Positions 2,323 to 57,096 of a stretch of DNA of 57,096 bases are shown here, one piece after another. The stretch is from Anaerolineaceae bacterium (GTDB lineage: Bacteria; Chloroflexota; Anaerolineae; Anaerolineales; Anaerolineaceae): positions 1 to 57,096 of the forward strand of contig JAGOVY010000001.1 in NCBI GenBank assembly GCA_018060515.1, read 5' to 3'. Both the position numbers and the translations under genes were made by a program. A model generated the notes under the pieces. The model searched no databases, was not told the DNA's origin, and worked only from the letters and a program-made list of their open reading frames with translations. Positions within the stretch are counted from its first letter, which is position 1; every line of letters starts with the position of its first letter.

Positions 2323-2398
2323 GCCGAGATAGCTCAGTTGGTAGAGCACACGACTGAAAATTGTGGGGTCGCCAGTCCGATCCTGGCTCTCGGCACCA
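2323..2398 (+). tRNA. tRNA-Phe (anticodon GAA), CCA encoded
   Basis: Acceptor GCCGAGA/TCTCGGC, D-arm GCTC-AGTTGGTA-GAGC, anticodon arm CACGA-CTGAAAA-TTGTG, T-arm GCCAG-TCCGATC-CTGGC, then A-CCA. Confidence 0.93.
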
Positions 2399-2425
2399 TA
2401 CACTCCCTTATGGGAGTGTATTTTC
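2399..2425 (+). terminator. rho-independent terminator after tRNA-Phe
   Basis: 9-bp stem TACACTCCC / GGGAGTGTA with loop TTAT, followed by TTTT. Confidence 0.6.
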
Positions 2426-2479
2426 ATTAATTACGGTATGATTGGGCATGTCATTGTAAAAACGGAAGGGTTGGTTTGT

Positions 2480-6356: not shown

Positions 6357-6373
6357 GACAGTATCCTTTCCTC

Positions 6374-7155: not shown

Positions 7156-7172
7156 TATCCTTTTCCTTTCAG

Positions 7173-8753: not shown

Positions 8754-8794
8754 TATTACCTCCATTAAAAAATATTTTGTTGATTAACAACTAT

Positions 8795-9850: not shown

Positions 9851-9852
9851 GG

Positions 9853-10902: not shown

Positions 10903-10933
10903 CTCAGTAAATCCTCCAATGAATTAAATAACA

Positions 10934-12418: not shown

Positions 12419-12459
12419 AGTTAATCCTTAAGTTACAGAAGTTGGCAGATAATTGATAT

Positions 12460-12488
12460 GGAGCGGCAAAGACAGGCTCCGCCGCTCC
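12460..12488 (-). terminator. intercistronic GC-rich hairpin between the binding-protein and ATPase genes (probable partial terminator or stabiliser)
   Basis: 8-bp GC-rich stem GGAGCGGC (12460-12467) / GCCGCTCC (12481-12488). There is no U-tract, so it is probably an attenuating or stabilising element. Confidence 0.4.
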
Positions 12489-12503
12489 AAGATCTCACTA
12501 CGT

Positions 12504-13517: not shown

Positions 13518-13646
13518 TTCTTTCTCCTTATGGATTGTGTGGTTGATTACAAAACAACAAAAAACTAATCAATCTCGTCTTCTCCTTCGGTTCTCCTCCT
13601 TTCAAGTGTCAGTTATCTAGGTAAATTGGTTAATGAATTCACCTTC

Positions 13647-14888: not shown

Positions 14889-14950
14889 TTACTTACTCTC
14901 CTTGTTAAATTAAATGCCAGATGTCCCCATCTGGCATTATGTTAATTAGC

Positions 14951-17308
14951 CTATTCAAGAACCCCTGCATCCAGCATCCCCAAGAAGATTTTCTCCGCTG
15001 AGTATGGAGGTCCTTCCAGCCTGACACCCGTGGCATCATAAATGGCATTCCCCAACGCGGCAATCGTCGGCACCATGGGGTGTTCGCCCACCCCGCGAGC
15101 ACCAAATGGGCCATCATCCTGCGGCACTTCAACGTACTGCGTGTCAAGTTTAAAATCAGCGTCAGCTGAAGTAGCAATGCGGTAATCAACAAAACTCGGG
15201 TTGGTCATCACACCATTGCGCAAGCGAATTTCTTCGAACATGGCAGAGCTCAGCCCTTGAACAAAGCCGCCCTCAACTTGTGCTTTTACCAACTCAGGGT
15301 TAATGGCTTTGCCAACATCAAAGCAAGCCGCGGCAGAAATAACGTGAATTCGGCCGGTACTCTTTTCGATTTCAATATCGAGCCCTTCACAGCCAACGGT
15401 GTAATGCACCACCGCACGTGGACCCTGCCCGGTTTCGGCATCAAGATTGCTGACATATTTAGGCATAAAGGAACCGCGTCCCACAATCGGGCCACCCACC
15501 CAGCCATCATCATTGGGTCTGGGAAGTCCATAAATGACCAGGTTTTCAAGTGGTGTTTCTTGTTCGCTCTTGTAAGAAACAACCATGCCGTTGACAATAT
15601 CCAAGTCTTCGGGTGTCTCATGCCAGGCTTCTGCAACAACATCCAGAATCTGTTTGCGTGCATCGAGCGCTGCCAGGCGAACCGCATTCCCCATACTCCA
15701 GGTGAGTCGGCTGGCAACTGTCTGCCATTCGTAGGGACTGTACTGTGTATCCACCGGTCCGGCGATACGTACATCTTCATATTTAACGCCTAATGACTCA
15801 GCCGCAATTTGCGCCATCACAGTGAAGGTGCCCTGACCAATTTCCTGCCCGCCAAGCCCAACGGTTGCTTTGCCATCTTCTGAAAGCTCCACCCAAGCGC
15901 TTGAACCAGGGTTAGGCGGCATGGCAGGGGCTTTCCACATAATGGCGATGCCTTTTCCACGCAGACGATCTGGGGAAGAAGGTTCTTCCTTGCGCGAAAA
16001 ATCAATCGCTTTTGCTACTTTATCAATACACTGTTGAATACCGTTGGCATGCATCGTCATCCCGGTGACCACAATATCACCTTCGGCGATGGCGTTATGC
16101 TTGAGGAATTTAACCTTTTCAATACCGGCTTTTTCTGCCAACTCATCAATTGCCTGGTCAATACCGGTGTGCAGTTCTGACATGCCAAAGCCGCGATAAG
16201 CGCCGCCAATGGGATGATTGGTATAAACGCAAATACTGTCCGTCCACACATTCGGAATATCGTATGGACCTGAGCTGGAATAACCGCCGGCGCGGGTAAT
16301 GTTGGTGCCATATTCGGTTGAGGCGCCGCCGTCCCAATACATCAAGTTCTTAAGCCCAAGGATGTTGCCATCTTTATCGCAACCCACTTTAACGTGAATT
16401 GTAAGACCCTGACGCACGAAGTTGGTATAAAACTCTTCTTCTCGAGTGAGGATGAACTTGATGGGATATCCCTTGAGCTTGGTTGCCAGCGCAACCGGAA
16501 TGGCTTCCATGGTCAAACCAGCTTTCGAGCCAAACCCACCACCCACCAACGGGGCAATTACACGCAGGTCGCTGTGAGAAATATGCAGCGCCTTGGCAAT
16601 TAAGTTGCGTTGTGCAAATGGCGATTGAGAAGAAGCCCACACTGTAACCTTGCCTTTGGCATCCATCATGGCCACTGCGCCATGAGGTTCAATAGGCACA
16701 TGCTGAATGTGGGGAATTTTGTAGGTTTTCTCTACGATATACGCGCATTGTTTCCAAGCGGCCTCAACATCACCTTTGCGAATCTTGAAGTGGTTGGAGA
16801 TGTTGGTTCCGGGTTTGGGGAAGATGAAGTTCACACAATCATATTTGCCCAAATCAGGGTGGAGGATTGGAGCTTTCTCCGAAACGCCATACTCGGCATC
16901 AAAAACGCCTTCAAGGGGTTCATATTCGACCTCGATTAATGTGCAGGCAAATTGAGCGATTTCTTCGGTAACGGCAGCTACTGCCGCAACAGGTTCACCC
17001 AAAAATCGCACGCGGTCGGTGGCAAAAATAGTTTTGTCTTTAAGGTAGAGCCCAATGCGCTCGGGAAAGTCTTTGCCGGTGACGACTGCTTTGACACCGG
17101 GATAAGCTTCGGCTTTGCTGGTATCAATGCGCTTGATTAAAGCATGAGGATGAGGGCTGCGAACAGCCCGCGCATAAAGTAATTTGTTGCCAAACTGAAT
17201 ATCGTCGAGATAAGCTGCTGCGCCGGTTACCTTTTCCAGCACATCATTGCGAATGACGCTCGTGCCGACGACTTCAGTGGTTTTTTCTGATGATTTCACG
17301 TTTGCCAT
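14951..17308 (-). CDS. xanthine dehydrogenase / aldehyde oxidase family molybdopterin-binding large subunit
   Basis: About 785 aa. Family motifs present: VGGGFGSK, GGAYRGFG, GQGTFTVMAQIAAE, and a C-terminal GVGEHPMVPTIAALGNAIYDATG. I moved the start to ATG 17308, which is preceded by AAGGAG. Confidence 0.9.
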   Translation of the reverse strand: MANVKSSEKTTEVVGTSVIRNDVLEKVTGAAAYLDDIQFGNKLLYARAVRSPHPHALIKRIDTSKAEAYPGVKAVVTGKDFPERIGLYLKDKTIFATDRVRFLGEPVAAVAAVTEEIAQFACTLIEVEYEPLEGVFDAEYGVSEKAPILHPDLGKYDCVNFIFPKPGTNISNHFKIRKGDVEAAWKQCAYIVEKTYKIPHIQHVPIEPHGAVAMMDAKGKVTVWASSQSPFAQRNLIAKALHISHSDLRVIAPLVGGGFGSKAGLTMEAIPVALATKLKGYPIKFILTREEEFYTNFVRQGLTIHVKVGCDKDGNILGLKNLMYWDGGASTEYGTNITRAGGYSSSGPYDIPNVWTDSICVYTNHPIGGAYRGFGMSELHTGIDQAIDELAEKAGIEKVKFLKHNAIAEGDIVVTGMTMHANGIQQCIDKVAKAIDFSRKEEPSSPDRLRGKGIAIMWKAPAMPPNPGSSAWVELSEDGKATVGLGGQEIGQGTFTVMAQIAAESLGVKYEDVRIAGPVDTQYSPYEWQTVASRLTWSMGNAVRLAALDARKQILDVVAEAWHETPEDLDIVNGMVVSYKSEQETPLENLVIYGLPRPNDDGWVGGPIVGRGSFMPKYVSNLDAETGQGPRAVVHYTVGCEGLDIEIEKSTGRIHVISAAACFDVGKAINPELVKAQVEGGFVQGLSSAMFEEIRLRNGVMTNPSFVDYRIATSADADFKLDTQYVEVPQDDGPFGARGVGEHPMVPTIAALGNAIYDATGVRLEGPPYSAEKIFLGMLDAGVLE

Positions 17309-17365
17309 GTTTCGGCTCCTTTTAAGGATTTCTTTTTTCAAAAGTCTTCTTTTGCGTCTGACGCA

Positions 17366-17830
17366 TTAGGCTTTGGCAGCTTCTCTAACGGCCTCGACAA
17401 TGCGATAATAGCCCGTACAGCGGCACAGGTTGCCTACGAGCGCCTCGCGAACATCCGCCTCACTTGGATCAGCGTTGCGTTTGAGCAGCGCCGTAGCGGA
17501 AATTAACATTCCCGGTGTACAGAAACCGCATTGCACACCGCCCGCCTGAATGATGGTGTTTTGAAGAGTGCTGAGCTTGCCATCTTTTGCAAGCCCCTCT
17601 ACGGTAACAATACGCGCGCCATCACATTCAGCAGCCAATACCATGCAGCTATTCACCGGTTCATCGTTGAATAAAACCGTGCAGGCGCCGCACTCGCCGG
17701 CTGAGCAGCCATTCTTGGTGCCAGTGAGCGAGAGTTTTTCACGCAGCATTTGCAGCAGCGTCATATGTTGAGGGACATCTACCGTTTCGAGCACATCGTT
17801 TACGGTGAGTGTAATTCTGGAATAAGACAT
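17366..17830 (-). CDS. [2Fe-2S]-binding small subunit of the molybdoenzyme (CoxS/XdhC-iron-sulfur type)
   Basis: [11 protein letters not shown] and CGFCTPG...CRCTGY cysteine clusters. I moved the start to ATG 17830, which is preceded by AGGAGG. Confidence 0.9.
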
Positions 17831-17862
17831 CGATTCCTCCTGTAAGGTACAAAGAGCCGAGG

Positions 17863-18756
17863 CTATTTGTTCAATTTTTTCCACACTTCCGTGAGGGCTT
17901 CACGTGTCACATTGCGCACCATCAGTTTGCGGTAGCGCGCTGAACCACGTACATCGTCAATTGGTGTAACAGCTTCCATGGCTGCGTCTGCCGCTTGGGC
18001 GATTGTCTCAGGAGTGATTTTTTTCTCAGCAAGAAGTGCTTCAGCCTTGTGGGCTTCCATAGGAACCGGTGAGACTGAAGTAAGTGCAATTCTAAATGTG
18101 TAACCAGATGGTGATTGGCTGTTGGGATATGCCATTGCGGTAACACCAACAATGGAAAGATCGCTAAGTTTGTTTCTTCCCAGTTTTTTATATACGCCAA
18201 CCATTCCCGTTGCAGGCGGGGCAAGTGTTACGGAAACAACGATTTCACCAGGTTTAAGTACTGTACGCCCTGGCGCAAGGAAGAAAGTGTTCAGCGGGAT
18301 GGCACGAGCTCCGCCTGTACCGTGAACATTCAATACTGCATCGTGCACCAGGCAGGTTCCGATTGTATCGCCGGCTGGTGAGGCGTTGCAGATGTTGCCC
18401 ACAATTGTGGCTCGATTGCGCAGTTGATAACTGGCAACAGATTTCGCAGCTTCAACCAGATTGGGATAGTGTTTGATGACATCATGGTTAGCAATGACTT
18501 GATTCATCGGTACTGCGGCGCCAATGGTTAGCCCTTTTTTGGGGTCGAATGATAGCTCTTTCGTGCCTTCAAGTCCCTTGATATCAACGAGGTAATCTAC
18601 CTTAATAACCCCGTCGCGTAGGCGCACAAAACTATCAGTACCGCCTGAGAAGGGTTTTGCTTTCCCTTCATGTTCCTCAAGGAACTTGCACGCATCGTTG
18701 AGAGACACGGGTTTTACGTACTCAAGTTCTGGGAGTCCTGGATGAGGATTGATCAT
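17863..18756 (-). CDS. FAD-binding medium subunit of the molybdoenzyme (CoxM/XdhB type)
   Basis: 297 aa. Contains the GGTDSFVRLRDG FAD-binding motif (GGTD) and ATIGGNICNASPAGD-like TIVGNICNASPAGD. Confidence 0.87.
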   Translation of the reverse strand: MINPHPGLPELEYVKPVSLNDACKFLEEHEGKAKPFSGGTDSFVRLRDGVIKVDYLVDIKGLEGTKELSFDPKKGLTIGAAVPMNQVIANHDVIKHYPNLVEAAKSVASYQLRNRATIVGNICNASPAGDTIGTCLVHDAVLNVHGTGGARAIPLNTFFLAPGRTVLKPGEIVVSVTLAPPATGMVGVYKKLGRNKLSDLSIVGVTAMAYPNSQSPSGYTFRIALTSVSPVPMEAHKAEALLAEKKITPETIAQAADAAMEAVTPIDDVRGSARYRKLMVRNVTREALTEVWKKLNK

Positions 18757-43865: not shown

Positions 43866-44603
43866 TTAGCGCTTCAGATGGACAAAATACTGGTAGCGGT
43901 CGCCGCGGTAGAGAATCTTCACGAATTCAACCGGTTTTCTCTCTTGCGAGAATAACAAGCGTTCATTCAATAATAAAGGCGCTCCAGCAGCAATATTCAA
44001 CAATGCCGCTTCTTCAGGTGTTGCCAGCGTCACTTCGAGCGTTTCATCCGCTTCTGTCGGGATGATGTGGAATTTTTCTGCCAGAATGCGATAGAGTGAA
44101 CCTGCCGCCGCCATTTCTTCAGTGGTTATTTGCTGATCATCTGCCAATACTAGGTAAGAAGTCTGTAAGCCGATCGGAACCCCATCACCGAGACGCACAC
44201 GCTCAATGCGATAAACCGTACTGCCTGGCGGCAGTTCCAGGCGCTGTAATACCCTCGGCGCCGGTTCCACCCGCTCAATGCTGCGGATGATTTGCCCGGG
44301 TTCAATGCCCCGCTTGGTCAGATCTTCTGAAAAACTGGTCAAGTCCATCCACCCTTTTTGCAGTTTTTTGGGCGAGACGAAAGTGCCCCGTCCCTGTTCA
44401 CGATAAAGATAGCCCTGCTGCACGAGAGAATCAATTGCCTCGCGCGTGGTCGTTCGGCTGACGTTATAGAGCTTCTCCAACTGGCGCTCAGATGGAATGG
44501 CGGCGCGCGGCGGCCATTCGCCATCTTCGATCTTTTGGCGTAAAATGGAAGCAAGCTGGTAATACTTTGGGATTATGTTATGAGGATCAACGGTTCTTGA
44601 CAT
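43866..44603 (-). CDS. GntR-family (HutC subfamily, UTRA effector domain) transcriptional regulator
   Basis: YYQLASILRQKIEDGEW...IPSERQLEKLYNVSRTTTREAIDSLVQQGYLYREQGRGTFV, plus a UTRA-like C-terminal half. It is divergent from the BMC operon. Confidence 0.87.
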   Translation of the reverse strand: MSRTVDPHNIIPKYYQLASILRQKIEDGEWPPRAAIPSERQLEKLYNVSRTTTREAIDSLVQQGYLYREQGRGTFVSPKKLQKGWMDLTSFSEDLTKRGIEPGQIIRSIERVEPAPRVLQRLELPPGSTVYRIERVRLGDGVPIGLQTSYLVLADDQQITTEEMAAAGSLYRILAEKFHIIPTEADETLEVTLATPEEAALLNIAAGAPLLLNERLLFSQERKPVEFVKILYRGDRYQYFVHLKR

Positions 44604-44616
44604 TTTTCCCTTGCGT

Positions 44617-44655
44617 GGTAAAATAACTCTATATTGGTAATGTGGTCATTACCAG
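44617..44655. promoter_or_regulatory. candidate GntR operator in the divergent intergenic region
   Basis: Perfect inverted repeat TGGTAATG-tggt-CATTACCA (44636-44655), plus an extra TGGTAA half-site at 44617-44622. Confidence 0.45.
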
Positions 44656-44707
44656 TTAGATTATCCGCCTTAATTCATGATTCGTCAAGAGTGGAGTGCC
44701 GCAATTC

Positions 44708-45337
44708 ATGAGCCAGGTTTCAGAAAACGACATCCATGAAATCGTCAAACGGGTCGTGCGCCTGACGCTCGGCAGCGATTCAGCCGCCTCTGCCCCCATT
44801 CAACAAGAAAAAACGCCGCTTTCAACCCCGGTGACAACTGTATCGGATCCTGTTAAAGATGTTCCGGCACAACGCGTGGTCGCCATCGGCACAGACCATG
44901 GCGGTGTAGAAATGAAGAAAATTCTCATCAAAGACCTCACAGAAATGGGCTATAACGTGTTCGATTGCGGTACAAACTCAACCGAGCCGGTGGATTACCC
45001 CGACATTGCTTACGCGGTGGCATTACTGGTTGCGCAAGGAAAAGCCTGGCGCGGTGTAATCCTCGACGGTGCTGGAATCGGATCTTGTATGGCGGCGAAC
45101 AAAGTGCAGGGTATCCGCGCCGCGTTGTGCTATGATTATGCTACGGCGGTTAATAGCCGCGAACATAATGATGCCAACGTTCTCACACTTGGTGCCGGTT
45201 TGATTGGCAACAATCTCGCCAGACAAATTTTAAAGACATGGCTTGCCACTGAATTCGGCGGCGGCAGACATGCAAAACGCGTGGATAAAATAATGGAAAT
45301 TGAAACTAAACCTTACAACGACGGGATGAGGAAATGA
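44708..45337 (+). CDS. rpiB: RpiB/LacAB-family sugar-phosphate isomerase with a ~60-aa N-terminal extension (encapsulation-peptide-like helix plus Pro/Ser/Thr linker)
   Basis: Core [14 protein letters not shown]...[24 protein letters not shown]...[13 protein letters not shown]...GGRHAKRV. N-terminus [21 protein letters not shown] 44696 is an alternative start. Confidence 0.85.
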
Positions 45338-46248
45338 CACCGGATCTAAAGACGATTGAAACTCTGGTGGAAATCATCACCCGCGAGGTGCTATTGGCGA
45401 TGGTTGAAGAGGAGGAGAGACAGAAGAACCCTGCTGGAGCAACCTGCCTCATTGAAGTAGCTGATGGAGTTAAGGTAAAAACCTGCTTCGATAACGCTGG
45501 GCGCGTAATCAGCGCCGGCGCCGAACGGCTAACCTCTACTGTTGGCATCATCCCTGAAGATCATTCACTGGCAGGAATGATTGACCATACGTTGTTAAAA
45601 CCCGATGCAACCAGCGACAAAATCGCGCAATTATGTTTTGAAGCCCGAAAATACCATTTCGCTTCTGTATGTGTCAACCCAACACACGTAAAGCTATGCG
45701 CAGACTTATTGAAGGGTTCAGAAGTCAAAGTCTGTACGGTCATCGGCTTTCCACTTGGAGCCACCTCCGCCGAAGTCAAAGCTTTTGAGACTCGAAACGC
45801 ACTGGATAATGGCGCCACGGAGATCGACATGGTGATTAATATTGGCGCTCTCAAAGCAGGCGAAAATGCGCTCGTCGCTCGTGATATCCGCGGTGTGGTT
45901 GAGGTTGCTCACGCTGCCATGGCATTGGTAAAAGTGATCATCGAAACATCATTACTGACCGATGAAGAAAAAGTAATCGCCTGCCTGCTTGCCAAAGAAT
46001 CCGGAGCGGATTATGTGAAGACTTCAACAGGCTTTTCAGGTGGCGGAGCCACCGTGCACGACATCGCCTTGATGCGCCGCGCCGTCGGCCCGGGCTTAGG
46101 CGTCAAAGCTTCTGGCGGCATCCACACCCACGAAGAAGCCGAAGCATTGGTTGCCGCAGGGGCAACCCGCATTGGCGCCAGCGCCGGCGTAAAAATTATC
46201 CGCGCTGACCAAGCCGCAAACCCTGCACCACAGTCAAAGGCTTATTAA
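45334..46248 (+). CDS. deoC: deoxyribose-phosphate aldolase with a ~85-aa N-terminal extension carrying an encapsulation-peptide-like helix
   Basis: Core [11 protein letters not shown]...SVCVNP...[11 protein letters not shown]...EIDMVINIG...VKVIIET...[10 protein letters not shown]...VKASGGI (DeoC catalytic Lys context). N-terminus [22 protein letters not shown] overlap with rpiB. Confidence 0.9.
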
Positions 46249-46260
46249 CCGGAGGAGACT

Positions 46261-46551
46261 ATGCTGATCGCAAGAGTGATCGGAACCACGGTTTCGACAA
46301 TAAAAAACGAGAAACTTACCGGGCGGAAATTGCTCATTGTGCGCCAGACAGATGAGCATGGCGAGCCTGTCGGCAAGCCTTTCGTAGCGATTGATACCGT
46401 TGCCGCTGGCGTCGGCGACCTTGTGCTGACCGCTGCAGGTTCAAGCGCGCGCCAAACTGAAATCACCAAAGACACTCCGGTTGACGCGGTGATTATGGCG
46501 ATGATTGATTCATTGGAAGTAGACGGAAAAACAACATTCCGCAAGAGTTAA
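46261..46551 (+). CDS. BMC-P pentameric vertex shell protein (EutN/CcmL/PduN family), paralog 1
   Basis: MLIARVIGTTVSTIKNEKLTGRKLLIV...AIDTVAAGVGDLVLTAAGSSAR; 96 aa, preceded by GGAGGAG. Confidence 0.9.
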   Translation: MLIARVIGTTVSTIKNEKLTGRKLLIVRQTDEHGEPVGKPFVAIDTVAAGVGDLVLTAAGSSARQTEITKDTPVDAVIMAMIDSLEVDGKTTFRKS

Positions 46552-46555
46552 TAGT

Positions 46556-48019
46556 ATGGCTGATCTCGACCAGGATCTAATTTCTATTCAAGAAGCGCGC
46601 AACCTCGCCAGCCGGGCTTTTATCGCCTGGACGGAATGGTCGAAAGCCTCTCAGCAAGACGTCGATCGTGTCTGCGCAGCCATGGCTGCCGCCGCCTTTA
46701 ACGCCGCAGACCGCCTGGCGCAACTGGCACACGACGAAACAGGTTTTGGTCATGCGAGCCACAAACGCCTCAAAAACGAGTTTGCTGCACAGAATGTGTG
46801 GCAAAGTATTCGAGACGTCAAGACAGTCGGCGTCATCCAGCATGATGTTGAAAAGAAACTTTATCAGATTGCCTGGCCGATGGGTGTGGTCGCTGGGCTC
46901 ACCCCAAGCACCAACCCAACCTCAACGGTGATCTACAAAATTCTCATCGCCGTAAAAGCGCGTGATGCAATCGTCATTGCACCTCACCCTTCTGCCGCTC
47001 AATGCAGTTATGAAGCAGCCATGTTGATGGCAAAAGCCGCAGAAGAAAACGGCGCGCCGCAGGGTCTCGTCTCTTGTATGAGAAATGTCAGCCTTGCGGG
47101 CACGCAAGAACTGATGAATCACAAGTATGTTGCGCTCATCCTCGCCACCGGCGGCACCCCGATGGTGCGTGCGGCGCATTCCACCGGCAAACCTGCTATC
47201 GGCGTTGGCCCGGGGAACGTCCCGGCTTATGTGGATCGTTCGGCTGACCTCGAAAAAGCCGCCCGATACATCACCGCCAGCAAGGCGTTTGATTGCTCAA
47301 CCATCTGCGCCACTGAACAAGCGGTGGTAGCTGACAAACCAATTGCCCGGGCTTTACAGCAGTTAATGGAAAAAGAAGGCGCATTCTTCACTGATGAAAA
47401 TCAAACCAACCTGCTGCGCCAGCTGCTGTTTACTCAAGAAGGGGCGATGGTGTCTTCAACCGTGGGCAAACCCGCGCAATACCTGGCGGCCCTGGCAGGT
47501 TTTGACACTCCACCGGGAACCCGCGTTCTCGTCACCCGATTAAAGCGCGTCGGTAAAGAAGAAGCACTTTCGCGCGAAAAACTTACCACGGTACTTGGCT
47601 GGTATGAAGAAGAAGGCTGGGAAGCCGGCTGTGAACGCTGCATCGAGCTGATCCAGTTTGGCGGGCGCGGACATAGTTTGGTGATTCACGCCACCGATGA
47701 AAAGGTCATCATGGCATTCGGGCTTGAAAAACCCGTCTTTCGGATCGCTGTGAATACTATGTCTTCTCTGGGTGCCATAGGTTTGACCACCGGGGTATAC
47801 CCTTCGCTCACCCTTGGCGCAGGCGGCGTGGGTGGGTCAATCACAGGTGACAACGTCACTGTGCACCATTTATTCAATATCAAACGCCTCGCCTACGAAA
47901 CTACTTCTCCTCCACCCGCTGCACTCGCGCCGGCGAATTCAACAACTGGCGCTTCAACTCATGAAGTTGAACAGGCTGTGTGGAATGTTGTGCAGGAAAT
48001 ATTAAAATTACAAATCTAA
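46556..48019 (+). CDS. CoA-acylating aldehyde dehydrogenase (PduP/EutE class) with a C-terminal encapsulation-peptide-like helix
   Basis: [12 protein letters not shown]...PSTNPTST...ATGG...GPGNVPAY...ICATEQ (catalytic Cys context). The C-terminal tail is a [16 protein letters not shown] linker followed by [19 protein letters not shown]. Confidence 0.9.
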
Positions 48020-48043
48020 TTAAGTACCAGAAAGGATGAAGAA

Positions 48044-48373
48044 ATGGCATTAGATACAGCATTAATCGCGTTGGGAATGGTTGAGACCAAAGGACTTGTC
48101 GGCGCAGTAGAAGCAGCTGACGCAATGGTCAAAGCAGCAAACGTTGTCCTCATCGGTTCAGAGTATGTGGGCGGCGGTTTCGTCACAGTGATGGTGCGTG
48201 GTGATGTCGGCGCCGTTAAGGCTGCCACTGATGCCGGCGCTGCTGCTGCCAAACGTGTGGGTGAATTGGTTTCCGTTCATGTCATTCCACGCCCCCACCA
48301 GGATGTTGAGATGATTCTGCCGCAAAGCTCCAAAGGCAGCATCGGTGGCCGTGGATCTGAAGCCAAGAAATAA
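48044..48373 (+). CDS. BMC-H hexameric shell protein (PduA/EutM/CcmK class, Pfam00936-type)
   Basis: [77 protein letters not shown]. Confidence 0.93.
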
Positions 48374-48388
48374 ACACGGCTTTCACAC

Positions 48389-49255
48389 GTGACATCCGTA
48401 CGTCTGACAACTGCGGCAGCTGACCCGCTGACTTGGCTTGCCCGCGCCGAACAAGTATTCCATCTCAACCCAGATGGCCGGGCTGCCTCACTCCACGCGC
48501 CGCCTGAAGGCGCGCTGCGTGTGGGCGTAGATTTGGGCACCGCCTACACGGTAATCGTGGTATTAGACAGCGCCGGAACACCTTTGGCAGGTGAATATCA
48601 GTTTGCCCAGGTGGTGCGCGACGGTTTGGTCGTAGACTTTTTTGGCGCAGTGAACCTGCTTCAATCACTCAAACAGAAAGTTGAAGATCGCCTCGGCAGA
48701 AAGCTCAGCAGCGCGGTTAGCGCATACCCCCCGGGTGTGCCGCGGGCAGATGCCCGAGCCGCAGCCAGTGTGCTGGAAGCTTCTGGTTTGAGATGCAAAG
48801 CGCTGCTGCCAGAACCCGAAGCTGCGAACCATGTCTTGGGCATTCGGGATGGTGTCATTGTAGATATCGGCGGCGGCACTACTGGCATCGCCGTGCTTGA
48901 AAATGGCAAAGTGACTTATACGGCAGATGAAGCCACCGGCGGAACGCACTTCAGCCTGGTGATTGCCGGCGCCACTGGCCTAAGCCTGGAAGAAGCGGAA
49001 GTATTGAAACGCAACCCCGATCAGCAGAAACAGCTTTACCCTCTGGTGCGCCCTGTGATGGAAAAAATTGGCACAATCATTGAACATCACATCCGCGGCA
49101 GCCAGCCCTCAATGATCACATTGGTTGGCGGTACGGCTCTCTTCCCGGGTATTGCAGCCGTAATCGAAGAAGTAACCGGAATTCCAACACAGGTTCCAGC
49201 GCACCCTTTGTTTGTTACCCCACTGGGCATTGCACTCGCAGATACAGGCGAGTGA
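48389..49255 (+). CDS. eutJ: EutJ-like actin/Hsp70-fold protein
   Basis: GVDLGTAYTVIVVLD...VVDIGGGTTGIAVLENG...EATGGTHFS...VGGTALFPGI. The GTG start at 48389 has no clear SD. Confidence 0.8.
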   Translation: MTSVRLTTAAADPLTWLARAEQVFHLNPDGRAASLHAPPEGALRVGVDLGTAYTVIVVLDSAGTPLAGEYQFAQVVRDGLVVDFFGAVNLLQSLKQKVEDRLGRKLSSAVSAYPPGVPRADARAAASVLEASGLRCKALLPEPEAANHVLGIRDGVIVDIGGGTTGIAVLENGKVTYTADEATGGTHFSLVIAGATGLSLEEAEVLKRNPDQQKQLYPLVRPVMEKIGTIIEHHIRGSQPSMITLVGGTALFPGIAAVIEEVTGIPTQVPAHPLFVTPLGIALADTGE

Positions 49256-49268
49256 TTCAGGAGGCAGG

Positions 49269-49895
49269 ATGATTGAAGATTTTTCATTACGTTGTTACTG
49301 TTTTATTGATCGTATGCAGGCACAATATGCCGCCTTTGTCGGCACTATCACACAAGGCGACCTGCCCGTGGAAGGGATGGCGGCTCTTTATGTTGAGATG
49401 GCGCCTGGAAACGAAGTTTTCAGGGTAGTGGATATTGCCGTCAAAGCCACAGAGTCCAAGCCTGGCGCCCAAATCGTAGAACGCGAATTCGGCATGTTTG
49501 AAGTGCATTCGCTCAACCAGGCTGCGGTCATCGAAGCCGGCCAGGTAGTACTCGACAGACTGGGATTAAAGAAAGAAGACCGTATCAAGCCTGAGGTGGT
49601 TTCTACCCAGGTGATTACGCGCATCGATCCCTACCAATCACAGCTCATCAACCGCTTCAGGCGCGGCAGCATGCTTGTGCCAGGCGAGACCATGCTCGTG
49701 CTGGAATGTGCTCCAGCTGCCTACATTAATTATGCGGTTAATGAAGCTGAGAAAAACGCGAATATCAAAATTATCCATGTGTCCTCCGTTGGCCGTTATG
49801 GCAGGATGTGGCTCTCAGGCACTGAATCTGAGATTATCAATGCTAAAAATGCCGCCACAAGCGCTTTGGAAAGCCTGGAAGGAATTAGAGGATAG
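49269..49895 (+). CDS. tandem-domain BMC-T shell protein of the CsoS1D/CcmP (double-stacking, permuted) type
   Basis: Start at ATG 49269 after AGGAGG. LRCYCFIDRMQAQYAAFVGTITQGDLPVEGMAALYVEMAPGNEVFRVVDIAVKATESKPGAQIVEREFGMFEVHS and ...LVLECAPAAYINYAVNEAEKNANIKIIHVSSVGRYGRMWLSG parallel the two domains of CsoS1D as I recall them. Confidence 0.78.
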   Translation: MIEDFSLRCYCFIDRMQAQYAAFVGTITQGDLPVEGMAALYVEMAPGNEVFRVVDIAVKATESKPGAQIVEREFGMFEVHSLNQAAVIEAGQVVLDRLGLKKEDRIKPEVVSTQVITRIDPYQSQLINRFRRGSMLVPGETMLVLECAPAAYINYAVNEAEKNANIKIIHVSSVGRYGRMWLSGTESEIINAKNAATSALESLEGIRG

Positions 49896-49926
49896 CACAA
49901 GGTCAACCCTGCTACAGGAGCAATTT

Positions 49927-50280
49927 ATGGCGAAACAATTTTTCACTGAACGTGATATCGAAGAACTTGCTGCCCGCGGAGAGAAGACGCTGCAGGTTAC
50001 TGAAGAGGTGGTATTAACCGAATTGGCCTATGAAAAAGCTGAAAAGCTGGGTGTCCGTCTGCTGCAAGCCCATCAACTGCCGCCGGCTGCACCCGTAAGG
50101 CCGTATCTGTCGCAGCCTCCGTGCGCTTGTACATCACCTGGCGCGCCTCAATCAGGTGATCCCGCAGACCTGCGCCAACGCATCCGTGATGCTGTCACAT
50201 TAAAACTGGGAGCCCAGGTTGACCCCCTACTGCTTGACACAATAATCACGCGGGTTCTCAACAACGTGGGAATGAAGTAA
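49927..50280 (+). CDS. 117-aa BMC-locus protein of unknown function; N-terminal FTERDIxxL...LTxxAxxKAxxLGVRL module, Pro-rich linker, C-terminal amphipathic helix
   Basis: Start at ATG 49927 after AGGAG; the longer ORF-track version (49675) overlaps the BMC-T gene out of frame. Sequence: MAKQFFTERDIEELAARGEKTLQVTEEVVLTELAYEKAEKLGVRLLQAHQLPPAAPVRPYLSQPP...DPLLLDTIITRVLNNVGMK. Confidence 0.65.
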   Translation: MAKQFFTERDIEELAARGEKTLQVTEEVVLTELAYEKAEKLGVRLLQAHQLPPAAPVRPYLSQPPCACTSPGAPQSGDPADLRQRIRDAVTLKLGAQVDPLLLDTIITRVLNNVGMK

Positions 50281-50282
50281 AC

Positions 50283-50603
50283 ATGCTTTTTGGTCGTGTC
50301 CACGGTACAGCGGTTTGTACTGTCAAGGCTGCCGGCCTTGAGGGGATAAAACTGCTCATCGTTCAACCACTTAACCGCAATCTCGAACCTACCGGCAGCT
50401 TGCAGGTGGCAGCAGATGTGGTACAAGCTGGTGCTGGTGATTTATGCGTGATGGTGCGAGCCCGCGAAGCAGCCCTGGCTATGCCTGAGGTTAAGTTTGT
50501 TCCGGTCGATTTGGCACTGATCGGAATAGTCGATGAGTTAGCCGTGATGCCTGATGGAAAATCAGATTTAGTCATGAAAAAAGGCACTACGGGTTACTCA
50601 TAG
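50283..50603 (+). CDS. BMC-P vertex protein, paralog 2 (with a ~20-aa C-terminal extension)
   Basis: MLFGRVHGTAVCTVKAAGLEGIKLLIVQP...AADVVQAGAGDLCVMV...LALIGIVDEL. Confidence 0.85.
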   Translation: MLFGRVHGTAVCTVKAAGLEGIKLLIVQPLNRNLEPTGSLQVAADVVQAGAGDLCVMVRAREAALAMPEVKFVPVDLALIGIVDELAVMPDGKSDLVMKKGTTGYS

Positions 50604-50610
50604 GGTTAAC

Positions 50611-50880
50611 ATGATTCTGGCAAAAGTTGTTGGCACTGTCGTAACTACCATCAGCCACGCGCATTACAAACAGCGCCGTTTGCTCGTAGTTCAGCCGCTC
50701 GTCACGGAGGGCGAAACGCCCGATGAAGATTTCATTGCCATCGATAGCACCCATGCTGGCATTGGAGATACGGTGCTTATCAACCGCGAAGGCAACGGTG
50801 CGCGTCAGGTGCTGAACAACCCTGACGCCTGTATCATCTCGGTGATTGTCGGCATCGTTGATTCTGTAACGTTGCCCTGA
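50611..50880 (+). CDS. BMC-P vertex protein, paralog 3
   Basis: MILAKVVGTVVTTISHAHYKQRRLLVVQPL...AIDSTHAGIGDTVLINREGNGARQ...VIVGIVDSV. Confidence 0.88.
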   Translation: MILAKVVGTVVTTISHAHYKQRRLLVVQPLVTEGETPDEDFIAIDSTHAGIGDTVLINREGNGARQVLNNPDACIISVIVGIVDSVTLP

Positions 50881-51075
50881 TTTTCGCACCACCCCGGAAT
50901 AAGATACAAGTTAGTGGTGTTTAATAACCCGCTCTTGCGATTGGGGGTTTATGAGTAAGTTCGTTCGTTTCTTCCAAGCTACTACCTTCTGAAAAACCAT
51001 GCGCAGGGTTGTGAAACTCTAACCGCAGCCAGTCTGAGAATCCAATCAAATCATCATCCTTATCGGTAAATGAAT

Positions 51076-51102
51076 AAAAAAAGGATCCCTTGAAGGGATC
51101 CC
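51076..51102 (-). terminator. rho-independent terminator of the minus-strand cytochrome-c cluster
   Basis: On the minus strand: GGATCCC-TTCAA-GGGATCC followed by TTTTTTTT. Confidence 0.68.
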
Positions 51103-51125
51103 GATGAATATTGAACCGGTTCCTT

Positions 51126-53431: not shown

Positions 53432-54850
53432 TTACTCCAAAACGTCAACCGAGCGAACCTGGGGTGGTTTCCATGCCAGGAAGAGCAGGTTGAGAAGAAT
53501 GCCAAAGACAGCAGCGGAAGCGATCGCGGGCCAGCCGAAGGGGAATACTCCCTTGAGCAGCGGGATGGGCAGATTGCCGCCGTATCCGATATTGCCGCCG
53601 ATACCAACGACCAAGATGAGCGCTACGATTGCCAGCTTGCCGGGATCGTAAAGATCAACTTTCTCTGCCATCATCAGAGCAATGCCCTGAACACCGATGA
53701 CACCGTACAGGTAGATGGCAAGACCACCGGTGACCGCTGTTGGGATGCTATAGATTGCATCGCGTAGTGGGCCGATAAAGCCAAGAACCACTGCAATTAA
53801 ACCTGCAGTAATGAGCGCCGGGCCGGAGTAGTTGCGGGTGATCACCATCAAAGAGTTGTTCTCACCGTAGTTCGTGCCAGCGGTGGAGCCGAAGAGACCG
53901 TTCACCAAGTCATTCAAACCATCGAGCATCAGGTTGAGGCCGATATGTTTTGAAAGGCCGGGTTTCTCGCGTCCCTGTTCTTCAGCCAAGTGGTCAACAT
54001 ACAAGCTGATCTGATACAGGTGGGCGGTGGATTCGGGGATCGTCGCGATAGCCATAACACCAACACCGACCATCGCCGTAAACGTGAGTGCGTGATTGAA
54101 TACCGGGAAGACAATGCTCGGCATGGTCAGCACACCGCTTGAACCGATTGAGGAGAAATCCACCAAACCGATGGGAATGGCAGCAACATAACCGAGGATC
54201 ATGGCCAGCAAAATTGGGAGCATGCCAATGAAACCTTTACCCTGCAGGTAAACTGAGAAAATAACAGCCCCAAGGAAGGTAATGAGTGCTGCGAGCCACC
54301 ACTTCAAGGTTGGGGCTGCATTCGCTTCTACACCGCAGCAGGTACCGGAAGCCATGGTAAGGGCTGTGTATGCCAGGCCAATACCGATGACAATAGCGAC
54401 AGAACCGGTAATTTCAGCGGGCAAAACTTTATCAAGACCTTTCTTACCACCTGTTGCACGAATCAGTAAACCAACCAGAATGTTGATTACGCCAGTGAGA
54501 ATGAAACCAGCGGTCACAACTGAGATGGTAGATGGTAATGCAGGTGCGCCAAAGGCAAGGTCAGGTTCCAAAACACCAACAATCGATGATGCAGCAGCGA
54601 TGTAGGCAAAACTGGAACCGTAGTACAGAGGAATATAGGTATTAATCGCAAATTTAGATCCAATTAATGCCACGACTGTTCCAAGGCCAGTGATGGTCAA
54701 GACTGTCGAAACATCAAAGTGCATGAGCAGGGCGCACAACACGGTTGCCGGGAACATGGTAAGCACGTGCTGAAAACCGAGCAATAACATCTTGCCAAAT
54801 GGGGGTTTATCGTGTGGTAGATAACCCATCACTTTTGAAGTAGTTGCCAT
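53432..54850 (-). CDS. NCS2-family nucleobase:cation symporter (uracil/xanthine permease type)
   Basis: GKMLLLGFQHVLTMFPATV..., ...IPESTAHL..., ...GTNYGENNSLMVITR.... These are canonical NCS2 motifs. 472 aa. Confidence 0.9.
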   Translation of the reverse strand: MATTSKVMGYLPHDKPPFGKMLLLGFQHVLTMFPATVLCALLMHFDVSTVLTITGLGTVVALIGSKFAINTYIPLYYGSSFAYIAAASSIVGVLEPDLAFGAPALPSTISVVTAGFILTGVINILVGLLIRATGGKKGLDKVLPAEITGSVAIVIGIGLAYTALTMASGTCCGVEANAAPTLKWWLAALITFLGAVIFSVYLQGKGFIGMLPILLAMILGYVAAIPIGLVDFSSIGSSGVLTMPSIVFPVFNHALTFTAMVGVGVMAIATIPESTAHLYQISLYVDHLAEEQGREKPGLSKHIGLNLMLDGLNDLVNGLFGSTAGTNYGENNSLMVITRNYSGPALITAGLIAVVLGFIGPLRDAIYSIPTAVTGGLAIYLYGVIGVQGIALMMAEKVDLYDPGKLAIVALILVVGIGGNIGYGGNLPIPLLKGVFPFGWPAIASAAVFGILLNLLFLAWKPPQVRSVDVLE

Positions 54851-55061
54851 TGGTTTTTTCCTTCTTTCCTTTGATTTATAGGTTTTCTTTGATCTGAATC
54901 TACTTACCTGGATTGAGCGACGACAAATGATAATGATTTTCTGTTCTCTAACGCTCGCACCTGAAACGCAAAATGAAATCGCCTAGACACCTCCTTATTT
55001 AAATAAATCACCATCTTGAATGTAAACTGATATGTATATGATACAACATATTGTCAAGATG

Positions 55062-55098
55062 GTTGATGGGGAGTGTTACTCCCCATCAACGGTTTTTT
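55062..55098 (+). terminator. strong intrinsic-terminator-shaped hairpin oriented for the plus strand, with no plus-strand gene upstream
   Basis: 12-bp stem GTTGATGGGGAG / CTCCCCATCAAC with loop TGTTA, followed by GGTTTTTTAT. Confidence 0.5.
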
Positions 55099-55102
55099 AT
55101 GC

Positions 55103-55258
55103 TTATTTGCCCAATATTAAAGCCAGGACAAGCAAGACAAGCGCAACCGGTACTACATAAACCAGCATTCGATATTCAGCAACTTCCATGAATTTCTTTT
55201 TTGGTTCTGGTGCATTTTCTGTGCCGGTTTCTTTGTTGCTTTTCAATTCTTCTGCCAT
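55103..55258 (-). CDS. possible 51-aa single-TM peptide, translationally coupled to coxG (not in ORF track)
   Basis: The ATG lies inside the last codons of coxG (ATGGCAGAAGAATTGA). Translation: MAEELKSNKETGTENAPEPKKKFMEVAEYRMLVYVVPVALVLLVLALILGK. Confidence 0.3.
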   Translation of the reverse strand: MAEELKSNKETGTENAPEPKKKFMEVAEYRMLVYVVPVALVLLVLALILGK

Positions 55259-55698
55259 CTTTCCTCCAAAATCTTATCGAGTTTATCAAACACAGTTTTG
55301 AACATTGATTTGGCGACGCTGTCGATCATTCTTTGTCCAACACTGGCAAGAGTACCGCCTATGTTTGCTTCTCCGGTGTACCTTAACAAAGTTGTCTCGT
55401 CACCAAGATCTTCAAACTTTACATAACCGACTCCTTTAACGAAACCTGCTCCGCCTTTCCCTTCAATAATCAGGGTGACGCTTTCTGGCGGAACCTCATC
55501 GGTTAGCGTGAGATTTCCCGAAAAGTTGGCAGATACCGGCCCTACGCGAATGCCTATGGCCGCTTCGTAATGAGATTCATCGAGCTTGACCATCTTCTGC
55601 ATCCCCGGCACTGCTGCACCGAGGGCATCAGGGTCATTGAACATCTCATAAACGACTTCACGAGGAGCATGAAAAAGATGCTCTCCTTCTACTTTCAT
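55243..55698 (-). CDS. coxG: CoxG / SRPBCC-family protein (carbon monoxide dehydrogenase subunit G-like)
   Basis: MKVEGEHLFHAPREVVYEMFNDPDALGAAVPGMQKM...GPVSANFSGNLTLTD...GGAGFVKG...GGTLASVGQRMIDSVAKSMFKTVF. Confidence 0.85.
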   Translation of the reverse strand: MKVEGEHLFHAPREVVYEMFNDPDALGAAVPGMQKMVKLDESHYEAAIGIRVGPVSANFSGNLTLTDEVPPESVTLIIEGKGGAGFVKGVGYVKFEDLGDETTLLRYTGEANIGGTLASVGQRMIDSVAKSMFKTVFDKLDKILEERWQKN

Positions 55699-55769
55699 AA
55701 CACTCTTCCTCCTATTTCGTTTCGTAAAGATTTCAGGTGTTTTTCAATTTTACACCTGAGTTTCAATTC

Positions 55770-57096
55770 TTATGCTTTATTGAGGTATCCAAAAACCACG
55801 CTTGGCGACAGATTGGATTCAAGTAGTTCCAATTTTTTGTCGTAGAAAGCGTCTTCAAATGCCTGTGCAAAAGCTGGGGGCGGCGGCAGTGCGCCAGCTT
55901 CACCCACACCTTTGATTCCAAGTGGGTTCAATGGGCTCGGTGTGTGCAGATGCCCCATTTCGATCTTCTTGGGCATATCTGAGGCCAGTGGCATGAGGTA
56001 ATCCATGAACGAAGCGGTCAATAACTGCCCATTTTCGTCGTATACCAATTTCTCGTAAAACGCATTGCCAATTCCCATAGAAACACCGCCATGCAATTGT
56101 CCTTCGAGAATCAGCGGGTTGATGACCGTGCCGCAGTCGTGGACGAGCACAAAGCGCTCAATCTTGGGTAAGAGGGTTTCTTCATCAATTTCCAATATCA
56201 CCGCACAAGCTCCTGAACCTGTGGCGCCATGCGGCGGGCCATAGTACGCGGTGGCTTCAAGGCCGGGTTCAACACCAGGCTCAACTACACCCCGCATGGG
56301 GTTCGCCAGGGCAGCCAGCGTGCCCAAAGAGATCGCGGTTTCAGGTTTGCCTTTGACACATACACTGCCCACGCCAAGTTCGACTTCGTCTTCAGGTACG
56401 CCAAGCGCCTTGCTGGCAGTGGTAAAGACTTTGGCGCGAACCTTCTGGCTGGCCAGATGGGTAGCCGTGCCCACCAGCGTGGCGCCGCGGCTGGCAAAGG
56501 TGCCTGCCCCCCATGCAAAGTGCCCCGTATCTCCGGTAATCACTTTTACATCTTCCACATTCACATTCAGCGCATCAGCCACAATCTGCGCAAACACGGT
56601 GAAATGCCCCTGCCCCTGCGAGCTATAGCCGGTAGTTAATGTGACCTTGCCATTGGTACTTACGGTTAATTTTACACCCTCGTACGGGCCAACCGCAGTG
56701 CCTTCGGTAAAGGCTACCACGCCGATCCCAAGCCGTTTGCCTTCTTTGCGCGCTTTGGGTTGAATTTCCTTGCGGAATTTATCGTATTCGACCATATCCA
56801 AACACATATTCATCGCGCCAAGATAATCACCGCTGTCGAGCACGCCTTCCACAAAGTCTTGGCCAATAATCCCTGTTTTAACCGGAAATTCTTCGGGTTT
56901 AAGCAGGTTTTTCAACCGTAGTTCAACCGGGTCCATTCCCATTTCACGCGCTGCAAAGTCAATCATACGCTCCATAGCGTGAATGCCTTCTGAGCGGCCA
57001 GCGCCGCGTACGGGGGTTACAACCATCTGGTTGGTAAAGACCATGCGGATTTCTGTGTAAAAATTCGGTACGCGGTAATTGCTCACTGTGTGGGTT
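55770..57096 (-). CDS. CoxL/xanthine-dehydrogenase-family molybdopterin subunit, C-terminal ~440 codons; the 5' end lies beyond the window end
   Basis: The frame stays open upstream of the ORF-track GTG (57086) to the window edge. Motifs: VRGAGRSEG, GYSSQGQGHFTVFAQIVAD, and a C-terminal GIKGVGEAGALPPPPAFAQAFEDA. Confidence 0.87.
   Translation of the reverse strand, partial: THTVSNYRVPNFYTEIRMVFTNQMVVTPVRGAGRSEGIHAMERMIDFAAREMGMDPVELRLKNLLKPEEFPVKTGIIGQDFVEGVLDSGDYLGAMNMCLDMVEYDKFRKEIQPKARKEGKRLGIGVVAFTEGTAVGPYEGVKLTVSTNGKVTLTTGYSSQGQGHFTVFAQIVADALNVNVEDVKVITGDTGHFAWGAGTFASRGATLVGTATHLASQKVRAKVFTTASKALGVPEDEVELGVGSVCVKGKPETAISLGTLAALANPMRGVVEPGVEPGLEATAYYGPPHGATGSGACAVILEIDEETLLPKIERFVLVHDCGTVINPLILEGQLHGGVSMGIGNAFYEKLVYDENGQLLTASFMDYLMPLASDMPKKIEMGHLHTPSPLNPLGIKGVGEAGALPPPPAFAQAFEDAFYDKKLELLESNLSPSVVFGYLNKA

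Follow-up and report, generated by a model that had tools for sequence, protein, structure and literature searches.

Sugar-phosphate-utilisation (SPU) loci, which encode bacterial microcompartments (BMCs), were defined in 2014; by 2021 more than 280 of them were known, in seven subtypes, of which SPU6 was assigned to Anaerolineae (PMC8217296). The SPU6 operon of Chloroflexi bacterium GWB2_54_36, studied by Dwyer, Sutter & Kerfeld (2024; PMC11585597), comprises a GntR/UTRA regulator, an RpiB-like protein (RPI), the aldolase DERA, an aldehyde dehydrogenase (AldDH), one BMC-H, one BMC-Tdp, three BMC-P and two hypothetical proteins. For this SPU6 operon, the activity of DERA on deoxyribose-5-phosphate has been measured in vitro, that of RPI on ribose-5-phosphate is negligible, and an RPI-DERA complex has been isolated; the encapsulation peptide of AldDH is C-terminal in this subtype and N-terminal in every other one (PMC11585597). 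SPU-type shells from Hodarchaeales self-assemble, as described in a 2025 preprint (PMC12747264). Here, these systems are compared with a ten-gene cluster and its divergent regulator gene at positions 43866-50880 of a 57,096-nt stretch from an uncultured Anaerolineaceae (Chloroflexota) bacterium (contig JAGOVY010000001.1, assembly GCA_018060515.1; the whole stretch is called the window).

Class and gene content of the operon

With a probability of roughly 0.8, this is a sugar-phosphate-utilisation microcompartment operon of the SPU6 subtype. It has the marks of a metabolosome locus: BMC-H (PF00936) and BMC-P (PF03319) genes in one cluster, an aldehyde-generating DERA together with a CoA-acylating AldDH, and amphipathic helices, recognised at the sequence level, at the N-termini of RPI and DERA and at the C-terminus of AldDH, each set off by a linker; the hydrophobic moments of these helices are 0.59-0.78, against a background 95th percentile of 0.53. 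The extended DERA (PF01791), the RpiB-type protein (PF02502) with Asp in place of Cys and with an encapsulation peptide, and the triplet of BMC-P genes are those of SPU loci in general; the C-terminal AldDH peptide, the single BMC-H and single BMC-Tdp, the GntR/UTRA regulator and the lack of PduS and phosphotransacylase (PTAC) are those of SPU6. The host range agrees: 79 of the 80 best genome loci belong to Anaerolineae or Chloroflexota metagenome-assembled genomes (MAGs). The SPU classification given in a preliminary description of the window is thus borne out for the enzymes, their extensions and peptides, and the shell set alike. That description also called the locus complete, which holds for the shell and the core enzymes; PTAC (PF06130) and an alcohol dehydrogenase (PF00465), the recycling enzymes of a metabolosome, were not found across the 57-kb window, in a scan of the operon, its neighbors and, in the rest of the window, all open reading frames (ORFs) that reach 120 aa. 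Because their lack is typical of SPU6 (PMC11585597), it does not exclude the locus from that subtype. The same scan found neither PduS nor any shell or BMC-domain gene beyond the five of the operon.

The GWB2_54_36 locus, compared through its published description, belongs to another Anaerolineae lineage, but shares with the window the divergent GntR/UTRA gene, the order of RPI and then DERA, the C-terminal AldDH peptide, the number of shell genes of each kind, the presence of two accessory genes, and the lack of PTAC and PduS. The catalytic DERA residues D165, K229 and K258 are present in the window protein under the numbers they have in the characterised SPU6 enzyme (PMC11585597), and RPI shows the same exchange of Cys for Asp, with the His kept. 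The two loci differ in an accessory slot, which in the window holds a full-length, motif-intact EutJ and not a Pfam-less hypothetical; further, where the 2024 paper sees no homology of its two hypotheticals to BMC-related proteins, and mentions neither EutJ nor EutQ in its text (PMC11585597), the window's pair resembles EutJ and, remotely, the N-terminus of EutQ. The locus is a typical copy of an already catalogued, partly characterised organelle type. The preliminary description had credited the SPU class with no experimentally established substrate or cargo, a view outdated by the DERA assay and the RPI-DERA complex published in 2024 (PMC11585597), and its claim of novelty rested on that view. 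What this analysis adds is modest: the EutJ/EutQ-N-like reading of the accessory genes, a conserved candidate operator, and a survey of variation across about 70 species.

All eleven genes lie where the preliminary description had placed them (ORF table; strong family matches; Table 1). The ten plus-strand genes extend from 44696 or 44708 to 50880, opposite the regulator gene, in the order RPI, DERA, BMC-P, AldDH, BMC-H, EutJ, BMC-Tdp, 117-aa protein, BMC-P, BMC-P. A four-base ATGA overlap at 45334-45337 joins the rpiB and deoC genes; the other gaps are 12, 4, 24, 15, 13, 31, 2 and 7 nt, and the tight cluster first described, with its gaps of 2-31 nt, its overlap and its divergent regulator, is thereby upheld. 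For rpiB, the ATG at 44708, which yields the 209 aa of the orthologues and has a GGAG 11 nt upstream, is the start preferred from the sequence over the GTG at 44696. The gene following the operon is convergent, with a hairpin terminator of its own at 51082-51102. Families were assigned by Pfam and NCBIfam profile scans of the ORF translations, and for the families it listed, the earlier gene list is right: all three BMC-P genes match PF03319, and RPI, DERA and AldDH match PF02502, PF01791 and PF00171, respectively. PF00936, expected for both remaining shell genes, matches BMC-H and leaves BMC-Tdp below Pfam's threshold.

Table 1. Genes and regulatory sites of the operon region, with their positions in the window and the matches or features behind each call (E-values unless stated otherwise)
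Feature	Position	Strand	Match or feature
GntR/HutC-type regulator (N-terminal winged helix, C-terminal UTRA effector domain)	43866..44603	-	GntR 1.5e-18; UTRA 2.9e-36
Operon promoter-like site	44597..44624	+	TTGACA, 16 nt, TAAAAT, TG extension; 11/12 consensus positions
Candidate GntR operator	44635..44654	.	perfect inverted repeat TGGTAATG-TGGT-CATTACCA
gntR promoter-like site	44660..44688	-	TTGACG, 17 nt, GATAAT; 10/12 consensus positions
RpiB-like protein (RPI)	44708..45337 (alternative GTG start 44696)	+	LacAB_rpiB 1.7e-53
DERA, signature enzyme	45334..46248	+	DeoC 4.5e-14; TIGR00126 deoC 283.7 bits (equivalog cutoff 117)
BMC-P pentamer/vertex protein, paralogue 1	46261..46551	+	EutN_CcmL 7e-29
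CoA-acylating acetaldehyde dehydrogenase (AldDH)	46556..48019	+	Aldedh 4.4e-18; TIGR02518 557 bits
BMC-H hexamer, presumed main facet protein	48044..48373	+	PF00936 BMC 2e-28
EutJ-family actin/Hsp70-fold ATPase	48389..49255	+	NF011660 340.5 bits (cutoff 182); TIGR02529 296 bits (cutoff 152)
BMC-Tdp, CcmP/CsoS1D-like tandem-BMC trimer stacking in pairs	49269..49895	+	CcmP 5lsr 1.3e-61
117-aa protein, candidate shell-cargo linker	49927..50280	+	no Pfam match; EutQ N-terminal resemblance
BMC-P, paralogue 2	50283..50603	+	EutN_CcmL 8.5e-22
BMC-P, paralogue 3, last gene of the operon	50611..50880	+	EutN_CcmL 4.3e-21

Enzymes and shell proteins

The core of DERA, residues 78-290, matches crystallised DERAs in the Protein Data Bank (PDB) at 6e-88, and the PDB alignments are restricted to this core; the 77 residues preceding it form an extension (an amphipathic helix and a short beta region) that is conserved across related loci. 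In 24 of 65 related loci (for example L046, L059, L065, L069, L076 and L081) the extension bears a four-cysteine motif, C-x3-C-x4-C-x3-C; the lineage of the window, which accounts for the other 41, retains two of the four, C38 and C51 (window 45334-45570). To judge from the sequences, this motif, which the text of the 2024 SPU6 paper does not mention (PMC11585597), may be a metal or Fe-S site that was lost in the window lineage.

RPI consists of an N-terminal encapsulation peptide, a linker rich in Pro, Ser and Ala, and an RpiB fold; its conserved amphipathic helix has the highest hydrophobic moment of the three cargo helices (0.78). It aligns to the PDB entry 3ph3, an RpiB, at 1.6e-41, with 'ilDgagig' opposite 'vicgtglg', so that the catalytic Cys is replaced by Asp; 67 of 68 related loci have Asp here, and the His is retained in the window protein, as reported for all SPU RPIs (PMC11585597). 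The label of RpiB-type isomerase used in the preliminary description therefore stands for the family fold and is doubtful for the activity, the active-site Cys being replaced and the orthologue being inactive on ribose-5-phosphate (PMC11585597); the protein is probably a pseudo-enzyme that serves as packaging partner of DERA rather than an isomerase. AldDH is 34% identical to E. coli EutE, with Cys251 aligned to the region of the EutE catalytic Cys. It lacks an N-terminal extension, its catalytic domain beginning at about residue 5 of the model, and ends in a Pro-rich linker followed by a conserved amphipathic helix (residues 468-485).

The shell gene set comprises one BMC-H, one BMC-Tdp and three BMC-P, the last 38-44% identical to each other; across related loci, BMC-H is 84-99% and BMC-Tdp 79-95% identical (tblastn). 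Against PF00936, BMC-Tdp scores 18.1 bits where the threshold is 24.5 (E 0.0026); it nevertheless matches end to end with CcmP (PDB 5lsr, Table 1), the Haliangium shell trimer HO-5816 (1.1e-58) and CsoS1D (1.5e-48), and its orthologues bear the CsoS1D_N domain (PF27545), which confirms it as the tandem-BMC protein first reported. Like these trimers, it has the Glu-Arg pair that gates the pore, E71/R72, its 'iver' aligning to 'fier' of CcmP (E69/R70). Unlike CcmP and CsoS1D, it belongs to a catabolic locus, and its match to the NCBIfam CcmP model (1.3e-75, 253.7 bits) lies below the equivalog cutoff of 340; it shares the fold class of CcmP but is not the carboxysome protein.

EutJ and the 117-residue protein

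The gene between BMC-H and BMC-Tdp is a genuine, full-length member of the EutJ family: its product is 44% identical to E. coli EutJ (8e-69), and the phosphate-binding motifs GVDLGT and DIGGGTT are intact. Across 72 related species loci, EutJ is full-length in 50, absent from 21 and internally deleted in one. In a distant SPU6 locus (L004, a 314-kb contig of JGI 3300015370), the slot between BMC-H and BMC-Tdp holds a 138-aa Pfam-less protein (L004:8906-9322), which is EutJ minus residues ~121-262 (~140 residues), with a Leu-to-Pro exchange in the first phosphate motif; it is a decaying copy.

For the 117-aa protein, listed simply as unknown in the preliminary description, a Pfam scan gave no match, as first reported, and a search of PDB sequences gave noise only; a likely role can now be offered from its resemblance to EutQ's N-terminal region. 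Its 516 homologues in the protein collection are all 117-122 aa long and unannotated, and its gene constantly has the BMC-Tdp gene on one side and the BMC-P pair on the other. In the protein, a variable linker that contains Cys connects two conserved modules; in the AF2 model (pLDDT 77.5) these appear as an alpha/beta module (residues 4-47, with helices 8-16 and 32-41), a disordered linker (50-78) and a pair of helices (79-114, with helices 79-97 and 100-114). When the family alignment is compared with E. coli EutQ by hhalign, the match has a probability of 91.3% (E 9.6e-7) and covers EutQ 2-100 and the whole of the family; the NCBIfam EutQ model also matches the protein, weakly (E 4.3e-4), through the N-terminal part of EutQ. 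In EutQ, residues 1-99 form two helices, a flexible linker and two further helices, and bridge shell and cargo: EutM and EutL are bound by H1/H2 and encapsulation peptides by H3/H4, and assembly can do without the cupin domain (PMC12487888, 2025). The layout of the 117-aa protein, four helices with a long linker, is the one reported for this region (PMC12487888). As it ends at residue 117 and thus lacks the cupin domain (PF06249), it falls outside the EutQ family as the cupin domain defines it.

These considerations give about an even chance that the 117-aa protein is a free-standing, cupin-less adaptor resembling the N-terminus of EutQ, a hub that ties cargo to shell in SPU6. Rather less likely is that it is a small encapsulated cargo or a regulatory protein, the resemblance to EutQ being a convergence of low-complexity amphipathic helices. 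Helices of the encapsulation-peptide kind are indeed compositionally similar everywhere, the N-terminal module is modelled as alpha/beta and not as purely helical, and the similarity is remote: identity is only 27-30%, the 91% probability was obtained with a single E. coli target sequence, and a Foldseek search of the PDB with the AF2 model, whose pTM is 0.37 owing to the flexible linker, returned nothing below E 0.1. Convergence would not, however, readily account for a match that covers both modules in order, with the linker between them, that rises from 75% with a shallow alignment to 91.3% with a more diverse one, and that stands far above the controls (EutQ scores 44; the best of ~125 unrelated ORFs reaches 19, and the best of 30 shuffles 17). 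The strict conservation of the gene beside shell genes also speaks for the adaptor, as does the multiplication of the N-terminal module in some lineages, which fits a docking module. This multiplication is seen in relatives of 223-245 aa (L087:479-1216, L088:457-1164 and L089:448-1119), where three copies of the N-terminal module precede a single C-terminal helix pair; a Pfam scan of these longer proteins gave no match. The contigs are 1-2 kb long, and on two of the three the gene follows a BMC-Tdp that is 75% identical to that of the window.

With the Eut microcompartment of Salmonella and E. coli, the window's locus has in common a signature step that yields acetaldehyde, an acetylating aldehyde dehydrogenase that acts next, an EutM-like BMC-H, EutN-like BMC-P, EutJ, and a protein matching the region of EutQ that bridges shell and cargo peptides (PMC12487888). 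It differs in having DERA, not EutBC, as the signature enzyme, in lacking EutD (the PTAC), EutG (the alcohol dehydrogenase), EutL, EutK, EutS and the cupin domain, and in having BMC-Tdp, three BMC-P and a C-terminal encapsulation peptide on AldDH. The clades of SPU6 and EUT3 are adjacent for both AldDH and BMC-Tdp, and EUT satellite modules have been reported for SPU6 (PMC8217296); by this comparison, the EutJ and EutQ-N-like assignments agree with the published shared ancestry of SPU6 and the EUT3 ethanolamine type.

Regulation, surroundings and proposed working of the organelle

The divergent region between gntR and rpiB spans 104 nt and contains a promoter-like site for each direction. The extended -10 element of the operon site (TGGTAnnAT) is kept in 26 orthologous intergenic regions, and the hexamers of the gntR site (CGTCAAG and ATTATCC on the plus strand) are conserved across orthologous regions as well; the promoter calls rest on this conservation and on position, since the totals of the scans (7 promoters found where 5.7 are expected, 7 terminators where 8.9 are expected, from shuffled sequence) are not above chance. 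With respect to promoters and terminators inside the operon, these scans thus neither support nor contradict a single transcript. Just downstream of the operon -10 element, and overlapping the start region of the gntR promoter, lies the palindrome, which is unique in the window even when three mismatches are allowed (chance expectation 0). Of 86 loci, 33 have its core, ATGTGGTCAYTACCAG, upstream of rpiB, once in each (L083 bears a second copy elsewhere), and all 26 extracted GntR-rpiB intergenic regions bear the palindrome or a close variant; further copies, as of a regulon, were not found in the window. These properties fit a predicted operator, at which a GntR/UTRA repressor would close both promoters. 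About 30 related loci have an orthologue of the regulator in this divergent place, and the presence of the palindrome and of both promoter sites goes along with that of the regulator; the best NCBIfam matches of the regulator are HutC-subfamily members, all below their cutoffs. An Rfam scan of the window detected two tRNAs only, and the operon leader gave no riboswitch.

Related loci were surveyed by tblastn with the window's eleven proteins, and the 117-aa protein, being restricted to this locus type, was chosen as a probe; its relatives occur in 452 species-representative genomes, the best 80 of which are Anaerolineae MAGs (Anaerolineaceae, Brevefilum, Bellilinea, Longilinea) except for one low-coverage contig binned as Asgard. 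The gene order of the window, with EutJ variable, recurs in about 70 species-level Anaerolineae genomes, at 50-99% protein identity and in essentially every contig long enough to show it. On the Asgard-binned contig (L080, JABCSI010000194.1; 7.9 kb, coverage 0.57; bin 'Promethearchaeota archaeon HM1_B6_4'), BMC-Tdp, the 117-aa protein and BMC-P are encoded, at 80%, 53% and 72% identity to the window, respectively; SPU-type loci have been reported in Hodarchaeales (PMC12747264), but for L080 an Anaerolineae contig in the wrong bin is likelier than an archaeal microcompartment. The closest genome is that of the Anaerolineaceae MAG AnMBR.bin355 (JAXGRS010000003.1; L002/L007), in which the gene order is identical, protein identity is 69-98%, and the flanks are shared, with Dak2, a methyltransferase and PMT_2 upstream and NmrA, a xanthine/uracil permease, CoxG and a Mo-hydroxylase downstream. 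It differs from the window by an additional NAD-dependent epimerase-family gene directly 3' of the last BMC-P. In the closest relatives this gene lies at L001/L007:10984-11973, where the window has a non-coding gap of 245 nt (50881-51125); no remnant of it was found in the window.

Farther from the operon, the minus strand at 8939-18756 encodes a nucleoside ABC transporter of the PnrA/Bmp type, made up of two permeases, a double-ABC ATPase and a Bmp binding protein, adjoined by an amidohydrolase and a three-subunit molybdoenzyme of the xanthine-dehydrogenase family; to judge from its sequence, the cluster seems to serve the uptake and catabolism of purines/nucleosides, and it could supply the pathway of the organelle. 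At 53432-57096 on the minus strand, genes for a CoxG-like protein and a xanthine/uracil permease accompany that of a second molybdenum hydroxylase, which is truncated where the window ends; these genes also flank the operon in AnMBR.bin355. The nucleoside and purine genes, which include two xanthine-dehydrogenase-family enzymes in the window, are 3-30 kb from the operon and fit a nucleic-acid-scavenging lifestyle. Elsewhere, the minus strand at 5214-8765 carries the genes of a sodium-pumping biotin decarboxylase (carboxyltransferase, biotinyl carrier and OAD beta subunit), and the two tRNAs are tRNA-Met (617-690) and tRNA-Phe (2323-2398), both on the plus strand; they overlap the ORFs at 660-2261 and 2363-3385, whose true starts must therefore lie further downstream. 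The second of these ORFs has an AllH-like domain at its C-terminus.

The locus would work as follows. The HutC-type GntR/UTRA repressor would bind the palindrome at 44635-44654, to be released by a phosphorylated sugar, plausibly deoxyribose-5-phosphate; a sugar phosphate is proposed on the basis of the usual ligands of UTRA domains. The ten genes, to judge from spacing and synteny, would be read as one transcript. By homology to solved shells, BMC-H hexamers, the CcmP-like gated double trimer and three BMC-P pentamers would build the shell, into which RPI, DERA and AldDH would be drawn by their terminal helices; here the N-terminal module of the 117-aa protein would hold the shell and its C-terminal helices the three encapsulation peptides, while RPI, with Asp for Cys and without ribose-5-phosphate isomerase activity, would act as the encapsulation-peptide partner that packs DERA (complex and inactivity are known from the orthologue), and EutJ would be a dispensable helper ATPase. 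Inside, DERA would cleave deoxyribose-5-phosphate derived from DNA or deoxynucleosides into glyceraldehyde-3-phosphate and acetaldehyde, an activity that its SPU6 orthologue has in vitro, and AldDH, as its family predicts, would turn the trapped acetaldehyde into acetyl-CoA and NADH. This chemistry is the one predicted in the preliminary description, and it matches the published model (PMC8217296, PMC11585597). As neither PTAC nor alcohol dehydrogenase is encoded, CoA and NAD species must cross the shell, CoA/acetyl-CoA and NAD+/NADH most plausibly doing so through the gated BMC-Tdp pore (Glu71/Arg72).

Three other readings of the locus bear on this scheme. RPI could be an active isomerase for another sugar phosphate, in which Asp would take the part of the base, a role that Glu has in M. 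tuberculosis RpiB; the entry substrate would then be, in place of deoxyribose-5-phosphate, a compound which RPI turns over for the aldolase. The possibility was left open by Dwyer et al. (PMC11585597), and it draws on the conservation of His and of the rest of the RpiB fold, on a score above the RpiB subfamily cutoffs, and on the near-invariance of the Asp, which suggests selection on that residue; it is nevertheless improbable, since the activity of the orthologue on ribose-5-phosphate is negligible and DERA alone cleaved deoxyribose-5-phosphate (PMC11585597), since no known pathway leads from the RpiB product to DERA, and since SPU5 loci have no RPI and SPU3 loci have it as a fusion with DERA, in keeping with a structural role (PMC11585597). 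Lower still is the probability that the shell is mainly or additionally of ethanolamine type, with the EutJ and EutQ-like genes as a working link that brings acetaldehyde from ethanolamine to the same dehydrogenase: the EUT satellites (EutABC/EutL) of some SPU6 genomes and the adjacent SPU6/EUT3 clades (Sutter et al., 2021; PMC8217296) lend it some weight, as do a genuine EutJ and an EutQ-N-like protein in one operon, but a scan, covering the window alone, found no eutA, eutB or eutC, no EutL and no other BMC-domain genes, and it is DERA and RPI that bear encapsulation signals and stand first in the operon. That the locus is a decaying or non-assembling remnant, as the lack of the PTAC and alcohol dehydrogenase of textbook metabolosomes, the pseudo-enzyme nature of RPI and the decay of EutJ in some relatives might hint, is very improbable indeed, given ten intact and tightly spaced ORFs, catalytic, gating and ATPase motifs that are all intact, and the purifying selection evident over about 70 species in the high identities of BMC-H and BMC-Tdp.

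Several points nevertheless weigh against the SPU6 scheme as set out above, in addition to the remoteness of the EutQ match. The effector of the regulator is a guess. Nucleoside phosphorylase, phosphopentomutase and deoxyribokinase, which would make deoxyribose-5-phosphate, were not found in the 57-kb window, and the recycling of cofactors is left unexplained. To our knowledge, compartments have not been observed in any SPU6 organism. Finally, Salmonella shows no phenotype when EutJ is deleted (PMC12487888), and 21 of the 72 loci are without EutJ, so its role may be marginal.

SPU is among the commonest catalogued microcompartment types and Anaerolineae SPU6 its best-studied subtype, so that the locus itself adds little; its value lies in what its parts suggest. 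If the reading of the 117-aa protein is true, the EutQ-type assembly mechanism of Salmonella extends to a phylogenetically distant microcompartment that does not use ethanolamine, and both hypotheticals of the published SPU6 model locus are Eut-derived assembly factors; in any case, the EutQ-N-like protein is a concrete candidate for the shell-cargo linker of SPU organelles. The defined candidate operator offers a handle for finding the inducer, and the compact ten-gene operon, with its motifs intact, is usable for shell reconstitution. The locus also poses the problem of how CoA and NAD+ are recycled in a metabolosome that has neither PTAC nor alcohol dehydrogenase. Most likely, the organelle burns the sugar of degraded DNA; as anaerobic digesters and sediments are rich in Anaerolineae, an organelle that burns the sugar of extracellular DNA would be relevant to carbon turnover in these environments.

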